Position numbers and translations under genes: made by a program. Below, one piece after another: positions 46,350 through 63,930 of a stretch of 64,000 nucleotides of DNA. The DNA is from Candidatus Omnitrophota bacterium (GTDB lineage Bacteria > Omnitrophota > Gorgyraeia > Gygaellales > Profunditerraquicolaceae). The stretch lies in contig JAQUOV010000003.1 of assembly GCA_028716965.1 (NCBI GenBank), positions 140,756 through 204,755 on the forward strand, written 5' to 3'. The stretch's first letter is position 1; each line of letters starts with the position of its first letter. The notes under the pieces are model-generated. The model was given only the letters and a program-made list of their open reading frames with translations, was not told the origin of the DNA and made no database searches.

Positions 46350-47113
46350 GTCTTCTCCCTGACTACCTCATTACCTGAATTACTCTGGCTATATTTATAC
46401 TGCCCGTCTGGATCAAGGTACACACCCTGCTTCACCTCATACAATATTCCCTCTTCTATTGGGGGGCTTTCATAATCGTTATCACCGGACTTCTTCTCTA
46501 CTATCTTGTACGGCACGGCAGTAACAATATCATCTTTAAGCCTAGAGGTCCTTTTATTGGTAATAGCATAGGTATCCTCGCTCTTCACATTCGTCTCGTT
46601 AAAAAGAGTATCGGACTCGGTATTCATATTTTCAGTTTGCAATACCCAATACGTCGCTCTTTCCTCGCCTGTTTCCGGATCTATCCTTTCGTGCCCTTTA
46701 ATATAATCATTATACTTAAATACTCCTTCGTCTTCATTGACCCTGAATACAAGCAAGCTGTCCGCAGATGAGCCTTTTGCCGATTTAGGTATAGCCCAAT
46801 ATACACTGGCAGAACCTGTTTGCGTAACATTACTGCCCTGCCTATAACCACCTGCCAGGTTTATCTGGTGCCTGTTCTGTAGAAGGGTATACTGCACAGA
46901 TGCCCCTGCGCCGTCTTCAGCGTATCCAGTATAGGAGTTAGCCTTCTCTAACGCCCTGCGAAAAGCCTCCATCTGCACATATTGCCTGTCATTAAGTTGC
47001 TGTATAAAAGAAAGCAGCGCCCCAAATACAAGCAATATCAAGGTGCCGAATATTGCCATCTCCGCTACTGCCTGGCCTTTCTTATTCGCGCATATCACTT
47101 TAATCACCGCCAT
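46331..47113 (-). CDS. TadE/TadG-like pseudopilin (start trimmed to ATG 47113; track ORF extended to 47227)
   Basis: KKGQAVAEMAIFGTLILLVFG, a TadE-like motif right after the chosen start. Confidence 0.55.
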   Translation of the reverse strand: MAVIKVICANKKGQAVAEMAIFGTLILLVFGALLSFIQQLNDRQYVQMEAFRRALEKANSYTGYAEDGAGASVQYTLLQNRHQINLAGGYRQGSNVTQTGSASVYWAIPKSAKGSSADSLLVFRVNEDEGVFKYNDYIKGHERIDPETGEERATYWVLQTENMNTESDTLFNETNVKSEDTYAITNKRTSRLKDDIVTAVPYKIVEKKSGDNDYESPPIEEGILYEVKQGVYLDPDGQYKYSQSNSGNEVVREKTWVTPF

Positions 47114-47540
47114 CCTCTTCAATCTCTTCGCCTGTTTCAGGGTCGTATTCAATCTCCGGGCCAGGAGCAACATATCCTTCTGAAGCAGGGACAAGATTTC
47201 CCGGCGTATCAGGAACATCTGTATCAACTATTCTACTTGTTACCTTATAGCTCACTTCCTCCAAACCTGAAACGCGCAAACCTCCACCCGTGAATAATTG
47301 GGTATCGGTAGTTAAATCATATTTACTTTCAGCATTACTTTCAGTTCTAGCAGTAGGGGAGATATCCGTCTCCTGTCCCTTTCCTATAAATACATCTGTT
47401 AAATCTTTGACCTTCCCCTGTATGCCGCGCTTAACATAAATATTCATTCCCCACAGCACCGCGGAGATTATTCCTAAAACTATCATATACTCCGCAAAAG
47501 AAGCAGAGGCCCTGCTTAGAATAACCTTCCCCTTTTTCAT
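47100..47540 (-). CDS. Flp-family pilin paralog with C-terminal acidic extension (start ATG 47540)
   Basis: MKKGKVILSRASASFAEYMIVLGIISAVLWGMNIYVKRGIQGK; starts 2 nt after the stop of the upstream gene. Confidence 0.6.
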   Translation of the reverse strand: MKKGKVILSRASASFAEYMIVLGIISAVLWGMNIYVKRGIQGKVKDLTDVFIGKGQETDISPTARTESNAESKYDLTTDTQLFTGGGLRVSGLEEVSYKVTSRIVDTDVPDTPGNLVPASEGYVAPGPEIEYDPETGEEIEEDGGD

Positions 47541-47541
47541 C

Positions 47542-47886
47542 TTACCACCTCGCCGGCTCCGCGCTAAAAGGCAAAACCTCTTCTTCGCGGCTGGTTGCGC
47601 GGCCACTTTCTATCTTGGTATCCATAATACTTTTCTTGTAATCAGTGCTATCCTCCAAATCAGTAACATAAGAATTACTTTGTATACTGACTGTGGTATC
47701 AATCGTAGTAGTAGAATCCTGCATTGCCCCGGGAGAATAAAAATAACCTCCTCCTACCTCATCAGCTGAACTCCGCATCCTGCCTGCAAGGCCACGTTTA
47801 AGATAGACCTGCATAGCGAAAAGCGCGGCCACGATTAAACTGACCATAACCACATATTCTATCGTAGATTGGGCAATATTCTTCAT
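47542..47886 (-). CDS. Flp-family pilin paralog (start ATG 47886)
   Basis: MKNIAQSTIEYVVMVSLIVAALFAMQVYLKRGLAGRMRSSADEVGG. Confidence 0.65.
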   Translation of the reverse strand: MKNIAQSTIEYVVMVSLIVAALFAMQVYLKRGLAGRMRSSADEVGGGYFYSPGAMQDSTTTIDTTVSIQSNSYVTDLEDSTDYKKSIMDTKIESGRATSREEEVLPFSAEPARW

Positions 47887-47896
47887 TTTCGCCCCT

Positions 47897-48061
47897 TTAT
47901 CTCTTGGATTCATTTAATTCCACCTGAATCTGTTTTAAGCGCGCGTTTATGGAGCGTTGTATATACTGGCGCATCGCCAATAAGGCCGTGACAATAACCA
48001 TAATCAGCATAGTATATTCCAGAAAATTCTGTGCGCGCCTGTTGTAAAAGGTATTTAACAT
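47897..48061 (-). CDS. Small Flp-family pilin, 54 aa (below the ORF-track length cutoff)
   Basis: Hand translation: MLNTFYNRRAQNFLEYTMLIMVIVTALLAMRQYIQRSINARLKQIQVELNESKR; GGGGAG/AAGGGA Shine-Dalgarno. Confidence 0.6.
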   Translation of the reverse strand: MLNTFYNRRAQNFLEYTMLIMVIVTALLAMRQYIQRSINARLKQIQVELNESKR

Positions 48062-48230: not shown

Positions 48231-49139
48231 TTAAAACCCAAAGTTAATCCCGCCGCGGGCAAACTGCAGGATGATCGGGCCTCCCACAATAATCATTACT
48301 ACCGGCAAAATAAAGGCAAACAAAGGAAAGAGCAGTTTAATCGGCGCTTTTAATGCCATTGATTCGCCGTGCTGGAACCTCCTTACCCTCATCTCCTCTG
48401 CCTGTACATTTAAAGCCTCGGACATAGGCGTACCCATGCGGTCAGCCTGTATAAGCGTACGCACAAAAGAATGCACTTCAGGGATATCCACGCGCCAACC
48501 GAAATTCTTTAAGGCCTCCCGCCTGCTTTTGCCGACCTGCGTCTCGCGGTAAACCTCCCCTAATTCCCTGGTCAGGTCGCATGGTTTCAAATCTTTAACC
48601 ACGCGGTTTACCGCCAACATGAAATCCATACCACCGCTGACACAAAGGGTCAATAGGTCAATGATATTGGGCAGGTCACGCCGTATATTGTGCACTCTTT
48701 TGGATATCTTTTGATTAAGCCACATCTCCGGGATAAAGAAACCTATGGCCAAAGAAATAATCAAAATCATATTCGTCGGCATGTTGCTGCTAAAGAAGGT
48801 AAACGCAATAACCGGAACAAAGATTATCGCCAACACCTTAAATGCCAAGAACTCCAGCACCCCCATCGGCAACCCGGCTTTAATCAGCCTCCTCCTTATC
48901 GCCTCTATTGAAAAAGGGATACGCCTTTCAAAATCCTTAAACCTGGCGGTAAGAGGCAGCCAAGCATTCTCCGGCTTTACCGTGTATTTGTCCTGGCTTA
49001 ACTCCATCTCTACCTTATCATTATCAAATATCTGAGCAGGCAGGCGCATCTTTTCCAGGCCGAATATCTTAGAACCGAACTGCAACAGCACAAGATAGAT
49101 GCTGGCAGTTAAAAGTAAAACCACTAAAGCTAATGTCAT
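48231..49139 (-). CDS. TadC-like inner-membrane platform protein (T2SS-F domain)
   Basis: T2SSF-like LPNIIDLLTLCVSGGMDFMLAV ... TPMSEAL plus TM helices. Confidence 0.75.
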   Translation of the reverse strand: MTLALVVLLLTASIYLVLLQFGSKIFGLEKMRLPAQIFDNDKVEMELSQDKYTVKPENAWLPLTARFKDFERRIPFSIEAIRRRLIKAGLPMGVLEFLAFKVLAIIFVPVIAFTFFSSNMPTNMILIISLAIGFFIPEMWLNQKISKRVHNIRRDLPNIIDLLTLCVSGGMDFMLAVNRVVKDLKPCDLTRELGEVYRETQVGKSRREALKNFGWRVDIPEVHSFVRTLIQADRMGTPMSEALNVQAEEMRVRRFQHGESMALKAPIKLLFPLFAFILPVVMIIVGGPIILQFARGGINFGF

Positions 49140-49151
49140 CCAGATTCTCCT

Positions 49152-50003
49152 TTATATATCCACCCTGCTTAATTTACGTATAAAAATAATACCAAGTATT
49201 TCAGAAACAATCGCGTAACCCATAAGGCCTCTTCCGAAGTTATCTTTAATGAACACGTCAAAAAAACCTGGATTCACCTTATACACAAATATCCCGAATA
49301 AGATAGGCAATATCGACATAATTATCCCCTGCATGTTTGCCTGCACGCAGAGGGCCTGGACCCTTCCAATAAGCTTATTCCTCTCCTGGATAGTATAGAT
49401 TACCCTGGAAAATGTCTGGGTAAGGTCTCCTCCGGTCTCCCTGGCTACCAGCATCGCGGTTACAACCATATCCAGTTCATCCAGGCGCATACGCTTCTTA
49501 AGCTTAGTCATCGCCTCCTCAAGAGAAACACCCATCTGCATCTGGCGTATGACAAGGCCAAACTCCTGGCTGATGGGGTTAGGCATCTCCTGCGCCAACT
49601 CCTCAAATGACTGCAAGAGGCTTAACCCCGCCTTAAGAGAGCTGGATAGAATCATTAACCCGTCAACAAGCTGCGAGGCGAATTTTTGCCTGCGTAAAGC
49701 TTCAAGCCGCTTGACGACAAAAATAGGAATAGCCAACCCCGCTGCTGCCGCCGCCGCGGCAACCCATATATTATAGGTAATGAAAAAACCCAATAACCCA
49801 CTTATTATAGGTGAAAGCACATCGATCAGCAGCAGCTTGTTTAACGTGATATCCAGAAACATGCTGTTTAACTTCGGGGTTATTTTATCCAACCTTTTCC
49901 TTTGCCAGCGATCCATTAAGGTTTCAAGAAAAGGATAAGACAGATTAATAAGATAAAAAACCCCAAAGAAGACCACTGCGAACAACAGTATCTTTGTCAG
50001 CAT
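49152..50003 (-). CDS. TadB-like inner-membrane platform protein (T2SS-F domain); alternative GTG start at 50009
   Basis: ILSSSLKAGLSLLQSFEELAQ ... VARETGGDLTQTFSRV; GGAG Shine-Dalgarno before ATG 50003. Confidence 0.75.
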   Translation of the reverse strand: MLTKILLFAVVFFGVFYLINLSYPFLETLMDRWQRKRLDKITPKLNSMFLDITLNKLLLIDVLSPIISGLLGFFITYNIWVAAAAAAAGLAIPIFVVKRLEALRRQKFASQLVDGLMILSSSLKAGLSLLQSFEELAQEMPNPISQEFGLVIRQMQMGVSLEEAMTKLKKRMRLDELDMVVTAMLVARETGGDLTQTFSRVIYTIQERNKLIGRVQALCVQANMQGIIMSILPILFGIFVYKVNPGFFDVFIKDNFGRGLMGYAIVSEILGIIFIRKLSRVDI

Positions 50004-50033
50004 TTGCACAACTCCATATTTGTACTTATCGCA

Positions 50034-50360
50034 TTACTTCCACCAGAACTCCTGGTCAGAAGTAGCAACTGATTCGCTTGTAGTTTTATCACTCGTTTGG
50101 CCATCAGTCGGGATCGTAGATACAGTTTGCTTATCTTTAAGTACCTCGCTAGATTCGGTACTGCTGGTAGTTGTATAATGCCCCGTGGTGTAACCCGGTG
50201 AAAACTGTTGGCCCATACTATCGGCACTTTCTCTTAATTTACCCTGGTATCCTCTCTTAAGATAAACCTGCATTGCGATAAGTCCGGCGACGATCACCCC
50301 GATCAAAATAGCATACTCCAATGTTGTCTGCGCCTTATTCCGCTTAAATTTGTTAAACAT
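50034..50360 (-). CDS. Flp-family pilin paralog with S/T-rich C-terminal extension (start ATG 50360)
   Basis: MFNKFKRNKAQTTLEYAILIGVIVAGLIAMQVYLKRGYQGKLRESADSMG; AAGGAGGTGA Shine-Dalgarno. Confidence 0.7.
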   Translation of the reverse strand: MFNKFKRNKAQTTLEYAILIGVIVAGLIAMQVYLKRGYQGKLRESADSMGQQFSPGYTTGHYTTTSSTESSEVLKDKQTVSTIPTDGQTSDKTTSESVATSDQEFWWK

Positions 50361-50388
50361 AAAACTCACCTCCTTAATCATTATATTT

Positions 50389-50727
50389 TTATTCTTCCTT
50401 AGGTACCAATATCGTCTGAGAACCACCTCTCCTGCTAGCATCGGTAGAACTCCTGGTGACCGCACCTCCAGTTAGCAAATCTTCATCTTCACTTGAGTTG
50501 CGCTTGCTGCTAAAATCTGATTCTAAATAATAGGGCTCATATTGCTTAGTTGTAAAGGTCACCGAATCTCCTGATGCGCCTCCGTAGTCAACATAATTCA
50601 CCGCGTCCTTGATCCTGCCCTGGAAACCCCTCTTAACATAAGTCTGCATACCTATTACTGCAGCAACTATTAACCCCAGCACGATAACATACTCTGCCGT
50701 GCTCTGCGCTCTTATATTCCTTAACAT
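50389..50727 (-). CDS. Flp-family pilin paralog (start ATG 50727)
   Basis: MLRNIRAQSTAEYVIVLGLIVAAVIGMQTYVKRGFQGRIKD; GGAGGTGA Shine-Dalgarno. Confidence 0.7.
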   Translation of the reverse strand: MLRNIRAQSTAEYVIVLGLIVAAVIGMQTYVKRGFQGRIKDAVNYVDYGGASGDSVTFTTKQYEPYYLESDFSSKRNSSEDEDLLTGGAVTRSSTDASRRGGSQTILVPKEE

Positions 50728-50753
50728 TTTCAATCACCTCCTTAAGAATTGCC

Positions 50754-50927
50754 TTATTCGAAATTAACATGGTTGACCGCGGTCTCCGCCTGCGTCGCCA
50801 CATGATCAAGCATATTATTCATTTTCGGCTTGATAATCGAGTTTGCGGCCAAGATTACTGCCCCTATAATCGCCGTGAAGATAATAATGTATTCAAGAGT
50901 ACTCTGCGCCTTTTTCTGCTTTAACAT
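50754..50927 (-). CDS. Flp-family pilin, 57 aa (start ATG 50927); candidate major pilin
   Basis: MLKQKKAQSTLEYIIIFTAIIGAVILAANS...; GGGGGTGA Shine-Dalgarno. Confidence 0.7.
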   Translation of the reverse strand: MLKQKKAQSTLEYIIIFTAIIGAVILAANSIIKPKMNNMLDHVATQAETAVNHVNFE

Positions 50928-50961
50928 TTTTCTCACCCCCTCTCTAAGATTTTCTGAAACT

Positions 50962-51230: not shown

Positions 51231-52844
51231 CTAAAGCAGGCACCAAAGGCGGCTGCTGTCCGCGAAGATGATTTCCCTCTCGTTTATCCTATGACAGGCA
51301 TATTCCAGTTCTTTTAGGAAAGGATACCCCGCAGGAGGGTAGAATTTCACTATGGAGCAGCCATCCCCTCTCTTTAGAATTGTATTAAGGCTATAAAAAT
51401 GTTGTTTTGCCTCCGGAAAACACTTGTCTTTAAAGACCTCGGGCAGAAAATACCAACGCACATACAAATCCAGGATCTGCAGATAATTCTCAAAAATTGC
51501 CTTTGTTTGAGGGGGGTTTTGAAGCTGCTCTGCACATTCCGCTGATAAAAAACGTTGGGAGTTGCCTGTATAAGTAAAGAACTCTATCTTCCTGCTGTAA
51601 TCCTTGAATGTTTCCCCTAAATTCGGCCAACGGCTAAGATATATATTTGCCAGCTTTTCAGGCTGGCTACTATCAAAAACAAGGTTACTTAAAATAACCA
51701 TCCTGGTTTTTTCTGAAAGTGTGTTTCTTATTGCGCAGCCCTTTAATGTAACTGACTGTCCTGCATCTGGTTGAGATATTTCAATCTCTATTTCAGAGAG
51801 GAAAAATTTTAGCCCCACCGGCTCGAAAACGAATGGTTTGAATTCTCCTATATTTAAGATCTTACGATAATCTACAAATTGCCAGGGCCACATTGCAAAG
51901 ACAAAAAAACGCTTTTTGCCGGAATTTAACTGGATTGAGTTTAACTCTTCAAGCTTGTTCCCATAAATCTTTAAACCGGCAACATCTCTACCTTTTAACT
52001 CCAGCCCTAAGATAAAATTAAAAAATTCCTTAGTAGGGACATTGTGCCCTGGGGCGGTAAATAAAACTAAAGGGGCATTATCTTTGAAGTGCCTATTTAT
52101 GTAACGACTTGTATTGCATATAGTTGTAGAAAAAGAATATGGCGTATGGGGGGTGGACCAAACAGTATACATATTGCCATCTACATATGAACTTTCATTG
52201 TTTGAAAAATCAATTCTCATACAACGGGCCTCTTTAAACACATTCCTGGTTGCCTGGGATATAACCTTATCTAATGACGTAACTGATTGTAAATCATTAT
52301 GATACGACATTATATCTTCAAAAGAGAGATTCTTGCCAATTAGCGCCTGTAAACCACTGATCTGGTTTTCTTGAGATTTCTCAAATAAAGGGAGATAAAT
52401 TAAGCCTTCTGTCTTTGCCATAATATCGTCTATGCCAATCTTCAGGCTATTCTTAACCGATTCTATGATACTTAGGCTGCCACCGATTAAGCTATCTGCA
52501 GCTTTCAGAAGGATTGCTCCTGTACACTGTATTTCCGGCTGTGGCTGAGCCTGAAGGCTGACTTTTGGCAGTTCTTCAGCCAGCTTTTCGGGCTCAGGCA
52601 CTAATCTCAAAACCTCCTGTATGGACTCTTTTATCGAATCCTTTTTCCTAAGCCTGGACCTTCCTACAGGCATGCTCAAGCCAGCCTCCTTAAACACTGA
52701 ATTAATGCTGGATTTGGATACCTCTATCTGAAATTTCTGTAAAATTAGATGAGATAGGCTCCTACAGCTTAGCGCGGGATTGGCTCTTTTCTGATCAAGG
52801 ATAAATTGCCTTGTTTCTGGCTTTAGTTTATGAATTACACCCAT
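51231..52844 (-). CDS. Putative DDE transposase (IS4/IS1634-like) with N-terminal HTH; start at ATG 52844 (track used TTG 52874)
   Basis: N-terminal HTH-like KPETRQFILDQKRANPALSCRSLSHLIL; C-terminal YLSRWPNLGETFKDYSRKIE resembles the IS4-family YxxRxxxExxxxxxK region. Confidence 0.5.
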   Translation of the reverse strand: MGVIHKLKPETRQFILDQKRANPALSCRSLSHLILQKFQIEVSKSSINSVFKEAGLSMPVGRSRLRKKDSIKESIQEVLRLVPEPEKLAEELPKVSLQAQPQPEIQCTGAILLKAADSLIGGSLSIIESVKNSLKIGIDDIMAKTEGLIYLPLFEKSQENQISGLQALIGKNLSFEDIMSYHNDLQSVTSLDKVISQATRNVFKEARCMRIDFSNNESSYVDGNMYTVWSTPHTPYSFSTTICNTSRYINRHFKDNAPLVLFTAPGHNVPTKEFFNFILGLELKGRDVAGLKIYGNKLEELNSIQLNSGKKRFFVFAMWPWQFVDYRKILNIGEFKPFVFEPVGLKFFLSEIEIEISQPDAGQSVTLKGCAIRNTLSEKTRMVILSNLVFDSSQPEKLANIYLSRWPNLGETFKDYSRKIEFFTYTGNSQRFLSAECAEQLQNPPQTKAIFENYLQILDLYVRWYFLPEVFKDKCFPEAKQHFYSLNTILKRGDGCSIVKFYPPAGYPFLKELEYACHRINEREIIFADSSRLWCLL

Positions 52845-52932
52845 ATTTTCTCCAGATTGGACATTATTAGCCAATATTAATGTACAATAAAATAGTCAAT
52901 ATGTCAACAATAATTCAGTTTGGACATTATTA

Positions 52933-52990
52933 GGGACGCTTTTGCACCTAAAGCAGGGACGTTTCTTAGCCTAATCGGAAAACTGTCCCC
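52933..52990 (-). repeat. REP-like element copy B (inverted relative to A and C)
   Basis: Reverse complement GGGGACAGTTTTCCGATTAGGCTAAGAAACGTCCCTGCTTTAGGTGCAAAAGCGTCCC matches copies A and C. Confidence 0.8.
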
Positions 52991-53057
52991 CCCCCTCCAG
53001 GAATATTTTGTTAGATTTTATTATATTGCAGCGTCTATTATAGCGGAGGTGATAAAT

Positions 53058-53540
53058 ATGCCAAGAAGTGCAAGATTAATTCTAGATAACGCATGCTATC
53101 ATTTGATGGCACGAGGGAATCAAAGACAATATACTTTTATTGAAGATGAAGATTTCAATAAATACCTTGAGCTATTAAAACATTATAAAAACAAGTATTA
53201 TTTTAAACTGTATGGTTATTGCTTAATGCCAAACCATGTGCATTTAATAGTAGAGCTTAATAAATCATCTATACTGGGAAAGATTATGCAAGGACTGAAC
53301 TTAGCATATACAATCTGGTTCAACAAAAAATATAATAAAGTGGGCCATCTCTGGCAGGGAAGATATAAGAGTAAGCTGATTCAAAAGAATAAATACTTGT
53401 TAGATTGCATAGAATATGTGGAGTTTAATCCAATAAGATCAAATATGTGGAAATCTCCTTTTGACCATCCTTGGAGCAGCTGGAAAGAACGCATGGGATA
53501 TAAAGAAAACAGCCTCGTAGATACTCCTAACTTAAGCTAA
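53058..53540 (+). CDS. REP-associated tyrosine transposase (RAYT, IS200-like Y1 HuH transposase)
   Basis: HuH motif LMPNHVHLIVE; catalytic Tyr region WQGRYKSKLI; GGAGGTGA Shine-Dalgarno 6 nt before ATG 53058 (track start 52920 is an over-extension); flanked by inverted REP copies B and C. Confidence 0.85.
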   Translation: MPRSARLILDNACYHLMARGNQRQYTFIEDEDFNKYLELLKHYKNKYYFKLYGYCLMPNHVHLIVELNKSSILGKIMQGLNLAYTIWFNKKYNKVGHLWQGRYKSKLIQKNKYLLDCIEYVEFNPIRSNMWKSPFDHPWSSWKERMGYKENSLVDTPNLS

Positions 53541-53598
53541 GGGGACACTTCTCCGATTGGGTAGGGAAGCGTCCCTGCTTTGGGTTCAGAAACGTCCC
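53541..53598 (+). repeat. REP-like element copy C
   Basis: GGGGACACTTCTCCGATTGGGTAGGGAAGCGTCCCTGCTTTGGGTTCAGAAACGTCCC, immediately after the RAYT stop codon. Confidence 0.8.
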
Positions 53599-53942
53599 TA
53601 ATCTATTAAGGTGATGTGGTCGCCTGTTTGGGTAGAGGTTCTTTCCAGGGTTCCTGCGGGAAGTTCAATACTAAATAGCGCGTTTAAATAAATACCGCTT
53701 ATCCTAAACGGCCGCATACTGCGGATCTCCCTTGTAATTCTGTTATTGGAATCAACAAAGATTACGTCTATGGCAAATTGCATAAAGAAAGTGTGGATTG
53801 AATTACAGGGTTTGATTATTAAAGCTTGTCCTTGTTTAAGCTCCCTGCGGTTTAACAAGCCAACCATCCTTCTTAACGGAGTTTTGGCAATAGCCGCATC
53901 CTCTGCTAAGCTTGTACCGCGGTCTTTGTTGATTATTTTCAT
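53598..53942 (-). CDS. DUF192-family protein
   Basis: HTFFMQFAIDVIFVD matches the DUF192 core; the ATG overlaps the TGA of the upstream ATPase gene (ATGA). Confidence 0.65.
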   Translation of the reverse strand: MKIINKDRGTSLAEDAAIAKTPLRRMVGLLNRRELKQGQALIIKPCNSIHTFFMQFAIDVIFVDSNNRITREIRSMRPFRISGIYLNALFSIELPAGTLERTSTQTGDHITLID

Positions 53943-56101
53943 AAAGAAGGGTTAAAAATATCGTCGGAGATCGAGATGCCCTGCACCCTGAGCTGTTCCA
54001 CAAAAGAGGGGATGTAACCTGTAGGTTTGAATTCACCAAGGACTTTGCCGTCCTTGTCCACTCCTGTCTGTTTGAATATAAAAATATCCTTTAAACCAAC
54101 ATGCACCTCATCAATCATGCCGATCATCTCTGAAACCTGCGTTACCTTTCTTGAACCATCGGATAACCTGGCAGTATGGATAATAATATTGATTGCCGAG
54201 GCGATCATCTCCCTGATTGCACGCACAGGAAGTTCTGCCCCCGACATAAGGATCATAGAATCCATCCTGGAGATAACGTCCCGGGTTGAATTCGCATGTA
54301 TCGTAGTCATAGATCCGTCGTGGCCTGTATTCATTGCCTGAAGCATATCCAGAGTCTCCGCCCCACGGCACTCGCCGATTATAATCCTATCGGGGCGCAT
54401 ACGCAGAGAATTGCGGAAAAGGTCCCTGGAGGTAATCGCGCCTTTCCCTTCAACGTTAGGAGGCCGTGATTCAAGGCGCACCCAATGTTCCTGTTTTAAT
54501 TTCAATTCCGCAGCATCTTCAATAGTGATAATACGCTCAGTAGGCGGGATAAATACTGACAGCACATTCAATACGGTTGTTTTACCCGAGCCCGTCCCAC
54601 CGGAAACAATTGTATTCTTTCTGGATAAGATACATGCCTGCATAAAATCAGCCATGGGTTTGGTTAAAGTATTTAAACGTAATAAGTCGTCCGTAACCAG
54701 CCGCTCGCGTCCAAATTTTCTTATAGTCAGCGTAGGGCCGGTTAAAGAAAGCGGAGGGATGATCGCGTTAACGCGTGAGCCGTCGGAAAGCCGGGCGTCC
54801 ACCATGGGGGCGCTTTCATCAATGCGCCTGCCTAAAGGAGCGATTATACGTTCAATAACCTGGCGTACCTGTTCATTGGAAAGGAACCTCTTGGGGGATA
54901 ACTCTATTCTGCCGTGGCGCTCAATGTATATCTGGTTTTTATTATTGACCATGATATCGGAAATATCCGAATCATTGACTAAATCCTCCAGTGGCCCAAG
55001 CCCCAATGCCTCATCAATTATCTCTTTGACCAGCCTTTTCCTTACATCGGAAGGAGAAAGGAACACCCCGGTTTCTTCCGCCAGGGCATTGGTAATTACC
55101 TTCTCGGTTTTTTCTTTTACGGCCTGAGCCTTGGCCGGGTCACTCATATCAATCTCTAAATGCTTAAGGTCAAGTTTTTCAATCAACCTTTGATGTATGC
55201 GCTTCTTTAATTCAATGATCTCATCCGGCTCCCTATCTTCACCTTCCGGGGTAAAAGCCTCATGGCCTAATTTAAATTTCTTCCAGAAATCCCCCTCTTT
55301 TGCAAAAAAACCCTCGCCTGCTGCAGAAGGCAAGGCAATCTCCTGTCGCTTAAGAAATAAACTCTCATCCTCGCTAAGCAGTGTGGCTAATTTCTTAATA
55401 CTTTGGCTGGCTCTACAATTAAGGTTGTCTATGACAAGTGGTATCCGCCTGTTTAATGCTAAACCCGCAGCCTTGCCTTCTGAAGATATACGGCTGATTA
55501 TCTCGCATGGCACAGCAGCACGCACCTCCTGCCAGATAACCCCGCCTAAGCTCTGGGCGCGGTTTAAAATGATCTTAATCATGCCCAAGGGGATATAGAG
55601 CGACTGCAAAATATCCAAAGACCACTTTGTTTGATAGACGGATAATATATCCGGTGTTACTACCAAAAGTACAAGGTTGGCGTGGTTGAAGACGGAAAAC
55701 AGGCTTTCGGTAAAAGCGCGTCCGGCGTCTATGATTATATAGTCATACTCCTTTTCCAACGCATCCAGAACAAGCTTGATCTTTTCGCTGTCTACACGAA
55801 ATATCTGGTTGGGTTTTAATACTGCGGGAAGGAAATCAATACTGTATTTCTCAATATAAATCAGGTCTCCTTTTACGGAGGCCTTTGTGGGGTCCTTTTT
55901 CAATGCCTCTGCCAAATCAAGCAGCGATTTGTCAGCCGTAATATCAAGCCAGCGGGGCATGTCTCCTGCGCCCTGTAAATCTAAATCAATAAGCGCTACT
56001 TTTTTACGCAGGTAATAACCCAGGCTGACAGCCAAATTCGTCGCAAGCAAGGTTTTGCCTACCCCGCCCTTTGTGCTGAATATGACTATTGTTTTTGACA
56101 T
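53939..56101 (-). CDS. Fusion protein: N-terminal TadZ/CpaE-like ParA/MinD ATPase domain plus C-terminal TadA/CpaF secretion ATPase
   Basis: N-term IVIFSTKGGVGKT (deviant Walker A). C-term VSGGTGSGKTT, RMRPDRIIIGECRG, AMNTGHDGSMTTIHANS (VirB11/CpaF family). Confidence 0.85.
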   Translation of the reverse strand: MSKTIVIFSTKGGVGKTLLATNLAVSLGYYLRKKVALIDLDLQGAGDMPRWLDITADKSLLDLAEALKKDPTKASVKGDLIYIEKYSIDFLPAVLKPNQIFRVDSEKIKLVLDALEKEYDYIIIDAGRAFTESLFSVFNHANLVLLVVTPDILSVYQTKWSLDILQSLYIPLGMIKIILNRAQSLGGVIWQEVRAAVPCEIISRISSEGKAAGLALNRRIPLVIDNLNCRASQSIKKLATLLSEDESLFLKRQEIALPSAAGEGFFAKEGDFWKKFKLGHEAFTPEGEDREPDEIIELKKRIHQRLIEKLDLKHLEIDMSDPAKAQAVKEKTEKVITNALAEETGVFLSPSDVRKRLVKEIIDEALGLGPLEDLVNDSDISDIMVNNKNQIYIERHGRIELSPKRFLSNEQVRQVIERIIAPLGRRIDESAPMVDARLSDGSRVNAIIPPLSLTGPTLTIRKFGRERLVTDDLLRLNTLTKPMADFMQACILSRKNTIVSGGTGSGKTTVLNVLSVFIPPTERIITIEDAAELKLKQEHWVRLESRPPNVEGKGAITSRDLFRNSLRMRPDRIIIGECRGAETLDMLQAMNTGHDGSMTTIHANSTRDVISRMDSMILMSGAELPVRAIREMIASAINIIIHTARLSDGSRKVTQVSEMIGMIDEVHVGLKDIFIFKQTGVDKDGKVLGEFKPTGYIPSFVEQLRVQGISISDDIFNPSL

Positions 56102-56110
56102 GGCAAACGA

Positions 56111-57718
56111 TTAATTATTTCTAAAGTCTATCGGTACATCAACCCAAAGTTCCTGAGATTCTATCTGGGGAGGGAAAGGAGGATAAGGCGCCTGTTTTTT
56201 GGCTATATCATAAGCAGCGTCATCTAAAACCTTATAGCCCGAAGATTGCACTAATTTGATGCCTTTTAAAGCCCCGCTTGCGGTAATATTAAGGTTCAGC
56301 CGTACATTACCTTCCCAACCCGCGTTCTTGGCTTGTTGGGGATAATAAGCTGATTTAACTATCTTTGATTTAACTATCCGTACATAATTTCCGAGACTTC
56401 CCGGTAACTCCGGCTCGTTAAAAGATTCTTGTTTTTTCTCCGCGACAGAATCGGAAGAAGGTTTCTTCCCTTTAGGCTCATCCCGAGCGACTATAGTAGG
56501 TACGAGTGTAACGAATAATTCCGTATCATCTCTTGCCCCTTGCCCTTTCCCTATTTTAGTTACTCTTTGCCTGAAGAATAAGCCTAAAACCGGGATATCC
56601 GCAAGCCAAGGGAATTTACGCAGGTCTTCTTCTGTCTTTTGCTTAATCAAGCCGCCTATTGCCATGATCTGGCCGTTATTAAGGTAAAGTTCGCTGGAGA
56701 CGGAACGCTTGCTCAAAGGATATGCCTTAGCAGTAGGCGCGTCTTCTGATCCCAGGATCTCAGCTTCCCCTACGTCACTGACCTCTACATACAAATTTAA
56801 TTTTATTCGGTCATCTTCGGTTACAGAAGGCTTTATCTTTAACTTAATGCCGTATTCTTTATATTCCACGTTTGTGGAGGAGCTGCCTCCTGTTGACACG
56901 GCTGTAGTGAAAACAGGTTTTTCACCTCCCACAAGCAATTGTGCTTCTTTATTAGTTTGACAAGATAGCCGAGGACGAGAGAGAATACGCGCCTTGCCTT
57001 CCTGTATTAAAGCATCCAGCTTTAAAGTAAATGCGGCGCGGGTTATATTGGCAACATGAAATAACTTTCCCCAGGTTGTCCCTGCCGCTTGAATACCTGA
57101 AGAACCCACTTCAGTTAAGGTCATTGAACCCGGCCATGAAAACCCAAGGGTCTTGGTAGCATCTTTATTAAGCTCCAGTATCTGCACATCAATTTCTATT
57201 ACTGTTTCCTCTTCTTTGACCTCGACAAGATCAGATATCTTATCTTTAAGGTCGTTTAAGGCCAAGGCGATCCTTTCTTTATCCTTGGAAGTCTTTACCC
57301 TGCCCAAAATAATGACTTTTCCTTCGTCCTCTTCTGCCTTGGTATAAACCTCCGGCAAATCCAATTGGCCTAATAAATTATCCACCCGCTGCTTGATCAA
57401 GGTCATATCTTCCCTTATTACTTTTATATTTTCGGACTGCTCGCCAAAAGTATCCCAGTATACCAATGAAGTCTGTCCTGGTGATTTTGCGGAAAGAGCG
57501 ATCTCTGTTTCAGTGACATTAGAAATATCCGCTACCAGGGGATTACCGATAATGACCCTGGTGGGCATTTGCGTAGGGATTATTTTGGTCTCCCCCACAA
57601 GTAATTTTAATGTTTCCTGCGGGGCGTCGCCGGCTAATATGGGACCCACCAATACCAGCATCAAGACCGGAATCAAGCTTACCATGATAAAAGCGTTTAT
57701 TTTCTTACACATATTCAT
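56111..57718 (-). CDS. Secretin (CpaC/RcpA-like) with C-terminal TonB_C domain
   Basis: Secretin core LLVGGEKPV ... FPWLADIPVLGLFFRQR ... ELFVTLVPTIV. C-terminus YYPQQAKNAGWEGNVRLNLNITASGALKGIKLVQSSGYKVLDDAAYDIAKKQAPYPPFP matches the TonB C-terminal consensus. Confidence 0.85.
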   Translation of the reverse strand: MNMCKKINAFIMVSLIPVLMLVLVGPILAGDAPQETLKLLVGETKIIPTQMPTRVIIGNPLVADISNVTETEIALSAKSPGQTSLVYWDTFGEQSENIKVIREDMTLIKQRVDNLLGQLDLPEVYTKAEEDEGKVIILGRVKTSKDKERIALALNDLKDKISDLVEVKEEETVIEIDVQILELNKDATKTLGFSWPGSMTLTEVGSSGIQAAGTTWGKLFHVANITRAAFTLKLDALIQEGKARILSRPRLSCQTNKEAQLLVGGEKPVFTTAVSTGGSSSTNVEYKEYGIKLKIKPSVTEDDRIKLNLYVEVSDVGEAEILGSEDAPTAKAYPLSKRSVSSELYLNNGQIMAIGGLIKQKTEEDLRKFPWLADIPVLGLFFRQRVTKIGKGQGARDDTELFVTLVPTIVARDEPKGKKPSSDSVAEKKQESFNEPELPGSLGNYVRIVKSKIVKSAYYPQQAKNAGWEGNVRLNLNITASGALKGIKLVQSSGYKVLDDAAYDIAKKQAPYPPFPPQIESQELWVDVPIDFRNN

Positions 57719-57726
57719 CCTTAATT

Positions 57727-58599
57727 TTATTCCAGAACCTTGATTTCCTTGTTTAAGCCACGGTAAATCTCAACGGTTTTCTTGGGTTTAGGAGGCACAA
57801 CTACAGGTTTTTCCTGCTGCTGAAAAGCCTGCGGCATCACGGTTCTGAACAAAGTATCCCAGCTTGCCGGAGTTACCTGTTGCAACTGCGTATCCCCGGG
57901 AGAACGCAGGATCAGCCGGATTTTACCCTGCTCTTGCACAAAAACAATAAGGTTCGCCTCCTGAGGCGATAAAGCAAAGGTTATGGCCGGAGCTATTGCT
58001 GCCGCTTTTTCTTCTTTTTTCCCACCCTGCATAAACTCCTGGCCGACAGCTAAAACTAAGACATCCTGGAATAAAGGCATAGTAGCCAATTGATTTACTT
58101 GTTTTCCTTCAGCATTCATTGCCGGAATAGGCACCATACCTACGATATCAACATGATCCCCAGGCCTGATCATACCTCCGACTGAAGAGATGTTATCTAC
58201 GGGAACAGTTACCGCTCTTTTGCCTGCAGGTACCTTCATGGATAAAGACCCTATCTCGCCGGAGATTGTAACCTTGTTCAAAAGCACCTGTTCACCTTTG
58301 TCTATAGGAGCAATGGTAATCTTATCCACAACCCTGTCTATGGATGCCGCCGAGCGGGGCTGAACCATATTCCTATTAACCGTTATCTCTGCAAGCATGG
58401 ATTCTTTTATTGCGGTGCCGGCCGGTATACTCTGCTTAGCCACTACTACGGTAGTGAGATTCTTCTGGCTTTGCGCTACCATCCTTTTTGCTTCTTCGGT
58501 CTGATGCTGGATATAATTATTGATCAGCACTACCGCAATTAAACCGCAAACTCCGCTAATCAGCAACGGCAGGTATTTCTTAAAGGCTTGAATTTGCAT
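57727..58599 (-). CDS. CpaB/RcpC-like Flp pilus assembly protein (SAF domain)
   Basis: N-terminal TM; VVVAKQSIPAGTAI; RAVTVPVD...GGMIRPGDHVDIV. Confidence 0.75.
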   Translation of the reverse strand: MQIQAFKKYLPLLISGVCGLIAVVLINNYIQHQTEEAKRMVAQSQKNLTTVVVAKQSIPAGTAIKESMLAEITVNRNMVQPRSAASIDRVVDKITIAPIDKGEQVLLNKVTISGEIGSLSMKVPAGKRAVTVPVDNISSVGGMIRPGDHVDIVGMVPIPAMNAEGKQVNQLATMPLFQDVLVLAVGQEFMQGGKKEEKAAAIAPAITFALSPQEANLIVFVQEQGKIRLILRSPGDTQLQQVTPASWDTLFRTVMPQAFQQQEKPVVVPPKPKKTVEIYRGLNKEIKVLE

Positions 58600-60286: not shown

Positions 60287-60315
60287 TTGACCACCCCATA
60301 TTTACATTATATACT
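60287..60315 (+). promoter_or_regulatory. Sigma70-like promoter TTGACC, 17 nt, TATACT for the FIST operon; predicted near-leaderless start
   Basis: -35 at 60287-60292 and -10 at 60310-60315; ATG at 60323, so about 7 nt from the -10 to the start codon. Confidence 0.4.
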
Positions 60316-60322
60316 GTCTGCC

Positions 60323-61510
60323 ATGAATGTAAGTTTTGGTTTTAGCCAGACCAAAGACCATATCCGGGCAACCAATGAAGCGGTCGGGCAGGCGATAATC
60401 GGCCTTAGGGGTATGCACGCGGACCTGGCAATTATCTTCACTACAATAGAATTTACACATCCTCTTGTATTAAAAACCGTCAACAACCTGCTTGGCGAAA
60501 TTCCCATATTAGGCTGCAGCAGCCTGGGAATTATAACTAACAAAGGGATATTTAAGCATGGGTTTGCCATACTGCTTATCGGATTAAGCCAGCAGATGTT
60601 CTTTAATGTCGCCTCGGTCAGGGATATCAATAAGAAAACCGCTCTCCTGGCCGGAAGAGAACTGGGAGAGAAACTGCTTTATGGATATAAAACTGTGCGC
60701 AGGAATTTAAGCATAATCTTTTCGGATGGTCTGATCTCCGAAGGAACCAGCCTGATCAACGGACTACAGGAAAATTTGGGCAGGAGCTTTCCTCTTATCG
60801 GAGCACTTGCCTCGGATAACTTTACCTTCCAGAAAACATTTCAATATTTCAATAAAGAACTGCTTAGCGAATCCTGCTGCGGGGTACTTTTCGGCGGCGG
60901 GATAAATTTCAGCCTGGGCATCAAACATGGTTGGAAACCCTTGGGGAAAGTACGCTGCGTTAATAAATCGGAGGGAAATGTAGTTAAAGAGATCGACGGC
61001 CGGCCGGCGGTAAAACTTTATGAAGATTACCTGGCTAAAGATACGCTTGAATTATCCGAAGAGCTGCGGCGCATATCCATCTTTTACCCTCTGGGGATTT
61101 ACTTGCCGGGAGAAAAAGAATACTTGCTGCGCAACATCATCTCCATAAAAGATGACGGTTCGCTGGTCACCCAAGGGGACATACCGCAGGATAGCAAAAT
61201 CAGATTAATGATCGGCACCAAAGATTCCTGCCTTGAAGCCGCAGCTGAATCCTGCGAAGACGCAGAAAGAAACCTTATGGGCCAAAAAGCAAAATTTGTG
61301 ATGGTCTTTGATTCCGCGTCAAGGTTTTCGCTTTTAGGCAGGCAATGCGTAAAAGAACTTGAGATAATAAAGGAAACGTTCGGCGAAGAAACCCCCTTAG
61401 TAGGCATTTATACTTATGGGGAACTTGCCCCCCTTCAATCCATAAGTTATCTAGGGCACAGCCATTTCCATAACCAGAGCATAGGCGTTCTGGCTGTAGG
61501 AGGTCAATAA
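60323..61510 (+). CDS. FIST domain sensor protein (start ATG 60323; track TTG 60287)
   Basis: FIST_C-like VGIYTYGELAP...SHFHNQSIGVLAV, and a FIST_N-like N-terminal half. Confidence 0.7.
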   Translation: MNVSFGFSQTKDHIRATNEAVGQAIIGLRGMHADLAIIFTTIEFTHPLVLKTVNNLLGEIPILGCSSLGIITNKGIFKHGFAILLIGLSQQMFFNVASVRDINKKTALLAGRELGEKLLYGYKTVRRNLSIIFSDGLISEGTSLINGLQENLGRSFPLIGALASDNFTFQKTFQYFNKELLSESCCGVLFGGGINFSLGIKHGWKPLGKVRCVNKSEGNVVKEIDGRPAVKLYEDYLAKDTLELSEELRRISIFYPLGIYLPGEKEYLLRNIISIKDDGSLVTQGDIPQDSKIRLMIGTKDSCLEAAAESCEDAERNLMGQKAKFVMVFDSASRFSLLGRQCVKELEIIKETFGEETPLVGIYTYGELAPLQSISYLGHSHFHNQSIGVLAVGGQ

Positions 61511-61511
61511 A

Positions 61512-62990
61512 ATGTTAAACCTGATGTTCATTGCCATTTGTATGGTTATTGCCAGCATGGGTATATCGCTGCTGTTTAAGATGCAACGCTTAAAGGAACT
61601 GGAAAAACGCGCGGATGCCTTAAACGCCTCGCTTGAAGAGATGGACGAACAAGCCAAATTGATTATTCGAACGGACATAGAATTAAATAAAACCCAGGAG
61701 GAGCTGGACAAAAAGATCACTGGACTTTCCACCTTGCAGCAATTATCCCGGGAGATAAGCACTACTCTGGAAGAAAAACAGATCTTCAAGAAGATAGGCA
61801 AGTTCTATCTGGAAGAGCTTGGTTTTGAGAAATCATCTGCTTTATTATGGGATAACCTGACAAGGGAATTCCACTTATACCTAAGCATTGGCTATAGCGA
61901 AAGCGAGTCGCTAAGAATAAAAGATGCGGTTAATACAGACAAGGATTACTACCTGGATTTGATGCACGGGGGCAAAACCGCATCCTCTGTTTTTATCCCC
62001 GAAGGCTTCCTGGACAAGGATAAAATTTGCCAGTTATTCCAGGCGAATGAATTTATTATCTGCCCGATCACCCCCAAGGAAGGCAATCAAGGGTTTATCT
62101 TTGTGGGCACGCAAAATATAGAAACCCGCATAACTGAAGGCGAACGTGAAATCATCACCATACTAGCCAATCAAATCGGCCAAAGCTTGGATAATGCCAG
62201 GCTATTTGAAAAAACCTGGAGGTCACAGCAGGAGCTTGAGATAAAAGTTGAAGAAAGGACGCGCCAGCTTACTGAAACCATGGAGGAATTAAAAAAGATC
62301 AGCAAGCGTAAAAGCGATTTCATCTCCAGTGTTTCCCATGAGTTAAGAACCCCCCTTACCTCTATTAAGGGATATGCGGCGATATTGCTGGCAGGCAAAT
62401 TAGGGGCTATCCCTGATGAGATCAAAGAACGCCTTGCCAAGATTAACCGCCACAGCGATGAATTAGTGCATATGGTAAATGACCTCCTTGATATTTCACG
62501 CATTGAATCCGGAAAAGTAAACATGCACGTAGAAACCCTGGAACTTGCCCCGATAGTTGAAAAAGTAGCCGATCTGCTTTCCGAACAGTTCAAAGCAAAG
62601 AATATCACCTTTAATATGCTTATTCCTGAGGATTGCAAGAAAATAATGGTTGACCGCAGCCAGATAGAAAGGGTTTTTATTAACCTGATAGGCAATGCCT
62701 TAAAGTTTACCCCTGAAAATGGCTCTATCAGCGTGGGCGTGCATTGCTCAAATAAAACAATTCAAGTCGATGTCAAAGATACCGGCTTTGGTATCCCCCA
62801 AGAGGCCCAGGAAAAGATATTTGAAGAATTTTACCGCGTGGACAACACTATCAACCAGGGGGTAAAAGGTACCGGCCTTGGGCTTACGCTGGTTAAGCAC
62901 ATCATTGAGGCACACCGGGGGAATATATGGGTAACCAGCAAACTGGGAGAAGGTGCAACTTTTAGCTTTACCCTCAACTGCACCGAATAA
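61512..62990 (+). CDS. Sensor histidine kinase (TM, coiled coil, GAF, HisKA, HATPase_c)
   Basis: H-box SVSHELRTPLTSIKGYAAIL; N/G boxes NLIGNALKFTP, DTGFGIP, GTGLGLTLVK; AGGAGG Shine-Dalgarno. Confidence 0.85.
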   Translation: MLNLMFIAICMVIASMGISLLFKMQRLKELEKRADALNASLEEMDEQAKLIIRTDIELNKTQEELDKKITGLSTLQQLSREISTTLEEKQIFKKIGKFYLEELGFEKSSALLWDNLTREFHLYLSIGYSESESLRIKDAVNTDKDYYLDLMHGGKTASSVFIPEGFLDKDKICQLFQANEFIICPITPKEGNQGFIFVGTQNIETRITEGEREIITILANQIGQSLDNARLFEKTWRSQQELEIKVEERTRQLTETMEELKKISKRKSDFISSVSHELRTPLTSIKGYAAILLAGKLGAIPDEIKERLAKINRHSDELVHMVNDLLDISRIESGKVNMHVETLELAPIVEKVADLLSEQFKAKNITFNMLIPEDCKKIMVDRSQIERVFINLIGNALKFTPENGSISVGVHCSNKTIQVDVKDTGFGIPQEAQEKIFEEFYRVDNTINQGVKGTGLGLTLVKHIIEAHRGNIWVTSKLGEGATFSFTLNCTE

Positions 62991-62994
62991 AACT

Positions 62995-63930
62995 ATGGGA
63001 ATCAAGATACTTATTGCTGATGACGACCCGGATATACGAGACATACTTAAGCTTACCCTTTCCGAAGAGAATTATGAAACCATTGAAGCCGGTAACGGCG
63101 AAGAGGCACTCAAGATAATCCGTGCCAAGCCCCTTGACCTGGTCCTTCTGGATTACAAGATGCCTAAGATGGACGGACGGCAATTGTGCAATTTAATCAA
63201 AAAAGACTTGTTGCTGCAGCACCTTCCGATAATCATGGTAACGGGGAAAGGCGAGGTAAGTGATAAAATCGATGGGATCGACTCCGGAGCGGATGATTAT
63301 ATCGTTAAGCCGTTTGAGCCTAAGGAGCTTTTGGCCAGGATACGCATGGTCTTAAGGCGCACAAAAAGAGACCTGGAGGCAAACCCGCTTACCCGCCTTC
63401 CGGGAAACGTAGCTATCCTTAATGAACTTTCCGACCGTATAGAAAATAAGAAAACTTACGCGGTTTGTTATGTAGACCTGGATAAATTCAAGGCTTATAA
63501 TGATAAATACGGATTTGAGCACGGAGACACCGTTATCCGGGAAACTGCGCGCATACTGCTTGGGGCTGCAAAAGAATACGGTAGCCTTCTTGATTTTGTC
63601 GGGCATATCGGGGGAGATGACTTTGTGGTAGTAACTACGCCTGAGATGTCGGATAAGATCTGCGAGAAGATAATCCACGATTTTGATAAAATATCCCCCT
63701 CCTTCTACAACCAAGAAGACAGACAAAACGGTTATATTATCGGCAGGGACCGTCAGGGAGAGATCCAGAAAATCCCCCTCCTTTCAGTCTCCATAGGCGT
63801 GGTGTCCAATGAAACGCGCAATATCACGCATGTAGCCCAAATCGGCGAGATCGGAGCAGAGTTAAAAAAGATCGCCAAGAGTGTTGAGAAAAGTAATTAC
63901 GTTAAAGACAAACGGCAAAACAAAGTTTAA
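62995..63930 (+). CDS. Response regulator with REC domain plus GGDEF-like domain (motif GGDDF)
   Basis: REC: ILIADDDPDIRD, LDLVLLDYKMPKMDG, VTGKG. GGDEF-like: YAVCYVDLDKFKAYNDKYGFEHGD ... HIGGDDFVVV. Confidence 0.8.
   Translation: MGIKILIADDDPDIRDILKLTLSEENYETIEAGNGEEALKIIRAKPLDLVLLDYKMPKMDGRQLCNLIKKDLLLQHLPIIMVTGKGEVSDKIDGIDSGADDYIVKPFEPKELLARIRMVLRRTKRDLEANPLTRLPGNVAILNELSDRIENKKTYAVCYVDLDKFKAYNDKYGFEHGDTVIRETARILLGAAKEYGSLLDFVGHIGGDDFVVVTTPEMSDKICEKIIHDFDKISPSFYNQEDRQNGYIIGRDRQGEIQKIPLLSVSIGVVSNETRNITHVAQIGEIGAELKKIAKSVEKSNYVKDKRQNKV

Follow-up and report, generated by a model that had tools for sequence, protein, structure and literature searches.

tadZA, a conserved gene joining a probable TadZ-derived ATPase domain to the TadA motor in the Tad pilus operon of Candidatus Omnitrophota

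The fused gene and its two ATPase modules

The stretch of DNA analysed here (the window; 64,000 nucleotides of the Candidatus Omnitrophota assembly GCA_028716965.1, contig JAQUOV010000003.1, positions 140,756 to 204,755) carries a Tad, or type IVc, pilus operon on its minus strand, and within this operon a single gene, tadZA, encodes two ATPase modules. The gene is one ATG-to-stop open reading frame (ORF) of 720 residues at 53939..56101 (minus strand; stop codon 53939-53941), delimited by the ORF list, by domain profiles and by collinear full-length homologues. A preliminary description, made from the letters of the sequence, had read it as a ParA/MinD-type ATPase fused to a VirB11-family Tad motor, and the ORF list, Pfam and the context of the tad locus all bear this out; each of the motifs that it quoted (KGGVGKT, GGTGSGKTT, GECRG and HDGSMTTIHANS) is present in the translation. 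The protein begins with a TadZ-like ATPase domain of the ParA/MinD fold (residues 1-250; 55352..56101), which no receiver domain (the atypical receiver domain, ARD) precedes, continues through a flexible linker (residues 251-295; 55217..55351), delimited by the predicted local distance difference test (pLDDT) score and by the family alignment, and ends in a TadA/CpaF motor (residues 296-720; 53942..55216) made of a three-helix bundle, an N-terminal domain and a RecA-like C-terminal domain. Pfam places ParA/AAA_31/CbiA at residues 2-172 and T2SSE at residues 366-646 (E = 1e-60, 205.6 bits vs a cut-off of 24.9), and in NCBIfam the MinD-type models match residues 4-244 and the TadA-family model TIGR03819 residues 325-657.

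Conservation was followed in an alignment of 40 sequences, the window protein and 39 homologues (clusters at 90% identity). In the TadA part, the Walker A motif GGTGSGKTT (residues 501-509; 54575..54601) and the Asp box EDAAE (residues 528-532) are invariant, as are G576, E577, C578 and R579 of the Walker B region GECRG (residues 576-580; 54362..54376) and H594 and H602 of the His box HDGSMTTIHANS (residues 594-605; 54287..54322). Three structures of Caulobacter CpaF (8rjf, 9e24 and 8rkd) take the top ranks in Foldseek with 44-46% identity in the alignment, and a sequence search against the same three gives E-values of about 1e-119; residues 112-489 of 9e24 align to residues 329-708 (E = 8e-120). 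The C-terminal part is thus a complete TadA/CpaF motor with its Walker A, Asp box, Walker B and His box. In the N-terminal domain, a deviant Walker A motif KGGVGKT (residues 11-17; 56051..56071), which fits the KGGxGx[ST] type of TadZ/CpaE, is itself invariant and has its signature lysine at K11 and its P-loop lysine at K16, and K11, G12, G13, G15, K16, D39, D125 and G127 do not vary. As these residues represent switch I and Walker B in addition to the deviant Walker A, nucleotide binding by this domain is probably intact. AlphaFold models the domain with a pLDDT of about 80-90. The 64-kb window holds no further ParA-like or TadA-like ORF and hence no separate tadZ or tadA.

Could such an ORF be an artefact of assembly or sequencing, in which tadZ and tadA are truly separate and an indel or base error has erased the stop between them? 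The junction does contain a run of seven T and a run of five G, both prone to indels, and many other phyla have the two genes side by side, often in one frame and with no more than one to three stops separating them. Nevertheless, the junction DNA is in frame and free of stops, and the protein remains in register with the 39 homologues on both sides of it, with no break in the alignment and with a conserved motif inside the linker, so that no frameshift hides in the homopolymer runs; the stop or frameshift that the preliminary description had allowed for near this point was not found. In addition, a search of 5.8 billion clustered proteins matched at least 120 independent, collinear clusters at 90% identity, from assemblies deposited in NCBI, JGI, ENA and Logan, nearly all of which are 715-726 residues long, 61-92% identical to the window protein over 99-100% of the query, and bear the same Pfam pair. 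Independent genomes from other phyla likewise contain fused ORFs free of stops. To the extent that sequence data allow, the artefact is already refuted, and we give it virtually no weight.

We conclude that tadZA is a genuine, uninterrupted gene and a conserved natural fusion. The matching clusters that carry a name belong to Candidatus Omnitrophota/Omnitrophica and are labelled "ATPase, T2SS/T4P/T4SS family", "TadA" or "MinD". One related locus, L081 (GCA_041643025.1), whose TadZA is 80% identical, is gene-for-gene the same as that of the window; the exact sequence of the window protein has no record in the contig index. Across much of Omnitrophota the fused form is the standard one, and a protein of this kind has been described in Bdellovibrio (bioRxiv 10.64898/2026.07.08.737194); the earlier view of it as unusual is therefore not upheld.

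Relatives, linker and distribution of the fusion

The relatives of the N-terminal half were sought by searching residues 1-420 against 1.84 billion representatives and classifying the best 150 (50% identity clusters) with local profiles. These comprise 41 full-length fusions and 30 fusions truncated at contig ends, and the closest stand-alone relatives after the fusions are about 45 proteins of about 400 residues with their ATPase domain at approximately 145-385 (31-39% identity, E = 1e-30 to 1e-24). When ten of these stand-alone proteins were run against Pfam, eight matched Response_reg together with AAA_31/ParA, six of them above the Response_reg cut-off, and the remaining two matched ATPase families only. 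This receiver-plus-ParA layout is the architecture of CpaE/TadZ. By contrast with these, the ATPase domain begins within about 25 residues of the N-terminus in 58 of the 60 fused proteins checked. The best structural neighbour of the N-terminal domain is 3ea0, a ParA family ATPase from Chlorobium tepidum (template modelling score, TM, of 0.87), with MinD second (TM 0.81).

We also checked 80 GTDB loci by ORF and stop analysis; these are examples among the matches listed and not frequencies. In 50 of the 80 the two halves are separate neighbouring genes, with tadZ ahead of tadA, which agrees with the earlier statement that the two are normally separate. These split loci come from Bacillota, Actinomycetota, Chloroflexota, Acidobacteriota, Planctomycetota, Nitrospirales, Rugamonas and others, and in the 32 where one alignment bridged both genes, the tadZ stop or stops fall within the linker, at query positions 243-284. 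About 60 genomes of many phyla in which residues 1-716 were matched had resembled fusions, and most of them hold adjacent separate genes across whose one to three stops tblastn had bridged. One uninterrupted frame across both domains is found in 12 of the 80 loci: two from Omnitrophota (L001, L002); five from Bdellovibrionota (L003, Pseudobdellovibrionaceae; L004, a groundwater "Deltaproteobacteria" metagenome-assembled genome; L006, Oligoflexia; L008, Bdellovibrionales; L011, Bdellovibrio sp. HCB288); one each from Elusimicrobiales (L045), WOR-3 (L059) and Eremiobacterota (L021, of high G+C content and with uncertain gene ends); and two that are unclassified (L028, and L007, whose Walker A is degenerate). 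The database search for CpaE-CpaF fusions proposed earlier therefore returns them also from Bdellovibrionota, Elusimicrobiales, WOR-3 and others; among the protein representatives, the fused P0147 is likewise from Pseudobdellovibrionaceae. In 10 of the 12 fused loci rcpC and/or the secretin gene lies upstream and tadB (or DUF192) downstream, and in L008 and L059 one flank only is visible. Separately, in the Eremiobacterota metagenome-assembled genome (L021, 9071-12916) the end of rcpC, tadZA and tadB all lie in one frame without stops, which reflects either a coincidence of high G+C content, a fault of the assembly or an even larger fusion.

Neighbour-joining trees with 100 bootstraps were built for the TadA domain (124 sequences) and the TadZ domain (152 sequences). 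In the first, 56 of 59 fused sequences fall in one region of 63 leaves, whose other seven leaves are L007 (itself fused) and six sequences that include FHA-like-TadA fusions; in the second, 94 of 97 stand-alone sequences form one block. Deep nodes have bootstraps below 50 in both trees, and neither holds a supported deep node that separates a single origin of the fusion from multiple origins. The TadA domain of the window is 52-57% identical to those of the Bdellovibrionota fusions vs 55-57% to unfused TadA from Chloroflexota.

Two further kinds of composite TadA were seen. An FHA-like N-terminal domain followed by a low-complexity linker precedes TadA in L036, L040, L054, L057, L068 and possibly L047, the FHA-like domains being assigned by eye from the sequence and not by profile; that such proteins adjoin the TadZA group in the tree suggests a TadA subfamily prone to N-terminal additions. 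Two representatives, P0011 (1158 residues) and P0025 (1148 residues), hold three tandem TadA modules in a single polypeptide (TadA profile matches at about 53-445, 452-798 and 805-1150 in P0011), and two such chains would make a hexamer.

Between the two modules, AlphaFold gives a pLDDT below 50 at residues 258-292, and we take the linker as the 45 residues 251-295, with a net charge of -4; across the family its length ranges from 41 to 49 residues and its net charge from -2 to -10. The preliminary description had proposed an acidic linker of about 120 residues. The acidity stands, if mildly; the length does not, as the span of about 120 residues is the gap between Pfam-level domains and residues 296-365 within it, by pLDDT and by the alignment to CpaF, are the helical bundle of TadA itself. 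This bundle opens at about residue 296 with a conserved LKKRIHxRLIE, and AlphaFold predicts helices in this N-terminal stretch at residues 294-309, 322-347 and 351-365. The linker is otherwise variable and yet holds, in the 40 aligned sequences, a consensus G[DE]FW[KQ][KR]x[GK]L, whose Phe (F272) never varies and whose Trp (W273) almost never does; in the window protein this Phe-Trp motif reads EGDFWKKFKLG (residues 269-279; 55265..55297).

The stand-alone TadZ proteins offer a comparison for this motif. MinD binds the membrane via a C-terminal amphipathic helix, and MinD-like tails are seen on many of the stand-alone TadZ/CpaE proteins (P0185-P0268) and on the products of genes upstream of tadA in the GTDB loci, for example KKKGFFGFFGGK, KKGGFLKGLLG and RGGLFGRIF. 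Defining a tail motif as an acid-free 10-mer with at least two K/R and at least three F/L/I/W/M, we find it in 52 of 91 stand-alone TadZ tails vs 15.2 +/- 3.6 in internal control segments (200 draws, maximum 25). The literature searched holds no mention of a MinD-like C-terminal tail of TadZ/CpaE. Among fused proteins, 24 of 60 linkers keep a basic/hydrophobic motif of this kind, such as KKGFGFLGFGKK in L059. In the clade of the window the Phe-Trp motif includes acidic residues and sits inside the protein rather than at a terminus; its distance from the ATPase domain matches that of the stand-alone TadZ tail. Our hypothesis is that it may be what remains of a MinD-like amphipathic tail that TadZ once ended in. 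With low to moderate confidence, the linker would then consist of the former C-terminal tail of TadZ joined to the former disordered N-terminus of TadA, with the motif as a modified matrix- or partner-binding element.

The surrounding tad locus

All the neighbours expected of a tad locus (rcpC, secretin, tadB/tadC and flp pilin genes) are present around tadZA. Upstream, the stop of the secretin gene (RcpA/CpaC type; 56111..57718, minus strand) lies 9 nt ahead of the tadZA start, an order also seen in L001, L002 and L081, and rcpC/cpaB (57727..58599, minus; Pfam RcpC and SAF) lies beyond it. Downstream, a DUF192 gene (53598..53942, minus; ORF list and Pfam) overlaps the end of tadZA by 4 nt at its start codon (53939-53942), a layout often tied to translational coupling, and DUF192 accompanies the tad locus in L001, L002, L028, L021 and L081 as well. 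Further on are three small Flp-type pilin-like genes (50034..50936, minus; pilin-like N-termini and a weak Class_IIIsignal match), a tadB-like platform gene (49152-50009, minus; Pfam T2SSF, and T2SSF in the syntenic L081) and a tadC-like platform gene (48231-49139, minus; annotated T2SSF in L081). The order rcpC, secretin gene, tadZA and tadB (or DUF192) is common to Omnitrophota, Bdellovibrionota, Elusimicrobiales and others.

Several other features of the locus deserve mention. The secretin is a second fusion in the same operon, as a TonB_C domain follows its Secretin and T2SS-T3SS_pil_N (Pilus_N) domains at the C-terminus; this 535-residue secretin-TonB_C architecture is found again in L081, and the matches to L001 and L002 extend through the C-terminal region. 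The locus has at least five small Flp/class-III-signal pilin-like paralogues (47100-47913 and 50034-50936, minus), and a similar expansion is found in L001. Inside the operon, between the DUF192 gene and the pilin genes, are an IS200-like Y1 transposase gene (52920-53540, plus) and an ORF of 547 residues with weak helix-turn-helix matches (51231-52874, minus). The same pair (160 and 555 residues) occurs at the same place in L081 (12567-14926), so the insertion is not a recent one, and the pair may be a module that is domesticated or specific to the locus. Divergent from the operon, a FIST-domain protein, a histidine kinase and a response regulator-GGDEF protein are encoded at 60287-63930 (plus), in a synteny kept in L081 (445-4086), and form a candidate cyclic di-GMP control module for the pilus. 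An ORF of 413 residues (42555-43796, minus) has a hydrophobic, pilin-like N-terminus and, after it, a long coiled-coil region in which Cys-containing motifs recur (e.g., PSCYSGCGC, PGCFSGAQSC and PGCYSGSGC), and may encode a large minor pilin or a tip protein.

Origin, proposed working and comparison with known systems

Our preferred explanation, to which we assign a probability of roughly 75%, is that tadZA is a natural in-frame fusion of adjacent tadZ (cpaE) and tadA (cpaF) genes within the Tad/type IVc pilus operon of Candidatus Omnitrophota. The derivation from TadZ is supported by the architecture of the stand-alone relatives, the position of the homologous gene in split loci, the match to 3ea0 and the lack of any other ParA-like ORF in the window.

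A number of points weigh against this explanation. The receiver domain, a defining feature of TadZ, is absent, as the ATPase domain begins at residue 3. The N-terminal domain passes no curated family model, its best curated matches are MinD models below their cut-offs (TIGR01969, 87.4 vs 201.75 bits; TIGR01968, 68.1 vs 212.9 bits), and many family members carry the label "MinD" at JGI. Its Walker A is the classical KGGVGKT, unlike the "atypical" K/RGGxGxS/T quoted for TadZ. With respect to the linker, the short helix predicted by AlphaFold at residues 271-275 is of low confidence, and the hydrophobic moment of the Phe-Trp motif is moderate (about 0.4-0.5, peaking in windows that start at residues 265-266); as a strict MinD-type membrane-targeting sequence the motif was rejected on this moment and on the basic, acid-free criterion. 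The TadA half of the AlphaFold model is poor (mean pLDDT 62.6) and the ATPase domain at the N-terminus of the protein is the only confident region, so that the geometry and contacts between the domains are unreadable. Finally, we know the fusion here from its gene and assume the uncleaved state in the cell, and the stoichiometry of hexamers and dimers proposed below is carried over from CpaF and MinD. The identification of the N-terminal part as TadZ/CpaE thus stands for the ATPase domain and falls for a whole TadZ; with the receiver missing and no curated model passed, we prefer to speak of an ARD-less, probably TadZ-derived ATPase domain rather than of "a TadZ".

Part of these points would also fit a MinD/FlhG-type ATPase that had been recruited independently onto TadA and would serve as an ATP-switched membrane anchor instead of a TadZ-style hub. 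To the MinD matches and labels and the lack of an ARD can be added the canonical deviant Walker A with both lysines and, in several fused lineages, a textbook MinD-like motif just after the domain (KKGFGFLGFGKK in L059, KKKGFSLFGRKK in P0241). However, such a tail is also carried by stand-alone TadZ and so does not discriminate, all MinD scores are far under the family cut-offs, and no minC or minE is nearby (none of 10 locus proteins is MinC- or MinE-like by Pfam). Moreover, the nearest stand-alone relatives have the receiver-plus-ParA architecture of CpaE, and the homologous gene of split genomes occupies the exact position of tadZ. We consider independent recruitment distinctly unlikely, and it largely converges with derivation from TadZ, since reviews describe TadZ as a MinD-like ATPase.

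The gene might also be fused and its product not, if internal initiation or proteolysis of the linker yielded separate TadZ-like and TadA proteins and the fusion ensured their co-expression only. A disordered linker would be accessible to proteases, and a TTG codon at residue 257 of the window protein has an AGGAG upstream at a suitable distance. Yet residue 257 is variable in the alignment, and in seven other fused genes (L081, L001, L002, L003, L011, L028, L045) no start preceded by a Shine-Dalgarno-like sequence is found at a consistent position; an internal start as a conserved feature was accordingly rejected. In Bdellovibrio, full-length TadZA-msfGFP accumulates and is functional (bioRxiv 10.64898/2026.07.08.737194). 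A split product therefore seems to us very unlikely.

Under the fusion of tadZ to tadA that we favour, the two genes would most likely have been joined by loss of the tadZ stop. The stoichiometric coupling implied by the preliminary description follows directly from the covalent link, as a 1:1 ratio, and the localisation of the platform that it also named would be carried over from TadZ/CpaE of other bacteria. Were the TadA part, like Caulobacter CpaF (8rjf, 8rkd, 9e24), a hexamer that powers the extension and retraction of the pilus, six TadZ domains would be tethered to each motor and, by analogy with the established ATP-sandwich dimers of ParA/MinD, could pair into up to three ATP-dependent dimers beside or around it. 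A positioning or recruiting module would in this way reach the TadB/TadC platform together with the motor. As there is no receiver domain, a separate partner would have to supply the spatial cue, as RomR does in Bdellovibrio, or else the linker motif would, through direct membrane contact of its Phe and Trp.

A bolder proposal can be built on the same observations: that TadZA marks a distinct, old Tad subtype with a receiver-less positioning ATPase on every motor subunit, common to Omnitrophota and Bdellovibrionota (both with predatory or host-dependent members), Elusimicrobiota, WOR-3 and others. The amphipathic tail retained inside the linker (the Phe-Trp motif in the window protein) would here act as an ATP-switched membrane clutch, and dimerisation of the TadZ domains would pull the TadA hexamer onto the TadB/TadC platform or free it from there. 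Caulobacter tomograms show an outer cytoplasmic ring around CpaF to which no protein could be assigned (PMC12637624), and this ring would then be TadZ. We regard the proposal as unlikely.

The fusion of tadZ and tadA bears on how TadZ/CpaE contacts the Tad motor. Being kept across a candidate phylum and recurring elsewhere, it is strong comparative evidence that the TadZ ATPase domain works beside TadA, with one copy per subunit, and that the receiver domain is a separable addition. TadZA proteins also represent ready-made constructs for structural work on the TadZ-TadA complex. Because annotation pipelines label them "TadA" or "MinD", TadZ can be scored as missing from the Tad systems of these lineages.

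What we describe is a large family of a recently described kind and not a new type of system. The "atypical TadZA fusion ATPase" of Bdellovibrio bacteriovorus HD100 was reported by Tesseur, Denise, Santin & Laloux (bioRxiv 10.64898/2026.07.08.737194, 8 July 2026) as an ARD-less, ParA/MinD-like TadZ region that a flexible linker connects to TadA; the TadZ region plus linker binds RomR, a polar hub with a degenerate receiver domain, the tagged protein shuttles dynamically between the poles, and the fusion is treated as a peculiarity of Bdellovibrio. The window protein shares with it the single ORF, the order of the three parts and the place in the main tad locus, downstream of rcpC and the secretin gene and upstream of tadB, and it is collinear with the Bdellovibrionota fusions (L003, L004, L006, L008, L011) over its residues 17-719, with 39-43% identity. 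There are also differences: the linkers are unrelated, those of Bdellovibrionota being rich in Ala, Lys and Pro with a start of the LLxxLxxLKKPS type vs the Phe-Trp consensus in the clade of the window; the Walker A of Bdellovibrio reads KGGVGKS vs KGGVGKT; tadC lies outside the locus in Bdellovibrionota, as the preprint agrees, while the window locus has both tadB and tadC; and RomR as a partner has been shown for Bdellovibrio only. Genomic work on Omnitrophota has reported Tad complexes whose TadB/TadC group with those of Bdellovibrionales (PMC10066038), and the fusion becomes one more Tad feature common to Omnitrophota and Bdellovibrionota. A TadZ-TadA fusion is mentioned neither in that study nor in a 2026 complete-genome preprint. 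The kind is thus known, if only since very recently, and the Omnitrophota family and the wider spread appear undescribed in the literature searched.

With the canonical split pair of TadZ/CpaE and TadA/CpaF (Aggregatibacter actinomycetemcomitans, Caulobacter crescentus, Pseudomonas aeruginosa), the window protein shares both ATPase modules in the order tadZ then tadA, and a TadA part close to Caulobacter CpaF. Polar localisation and being required for the assembly of the secretin and the machine are experimental traits of A. actinomycetemcomitans TadZ and of Caulobacter CpaE. Unlike the canonical pair, the modules of the window are covalently joined, the N-terminal atypical receiver of TadZ is missing (stand-alone TadZ-type proteins of about 400 residues have an N-terminal extension of about 140 residues vs none here), the C-terminal tail of TadZ would have become internal and the disordered N-terminus of TadA would have become part of the tether. 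MinD has the same fold and a deviant Walker A with the signature lysine, and its short basic/hydrophobic motif after the domain recurs in many stand-alone TadZ and some fusions; the window domain differs from it in its scores, in its pilus-operon context and in a motif that is acidic in part and internal, not terminal. Finally, the FHA-TadA fusions, neighbours of TadZA in the tree, likewise place a regulatory or positioning module at the N-terminus of TadA via a low-complexity linker, the module being in their case a phosphopeptide-binding FHA-like domain (by eye) instead of an ATPase.

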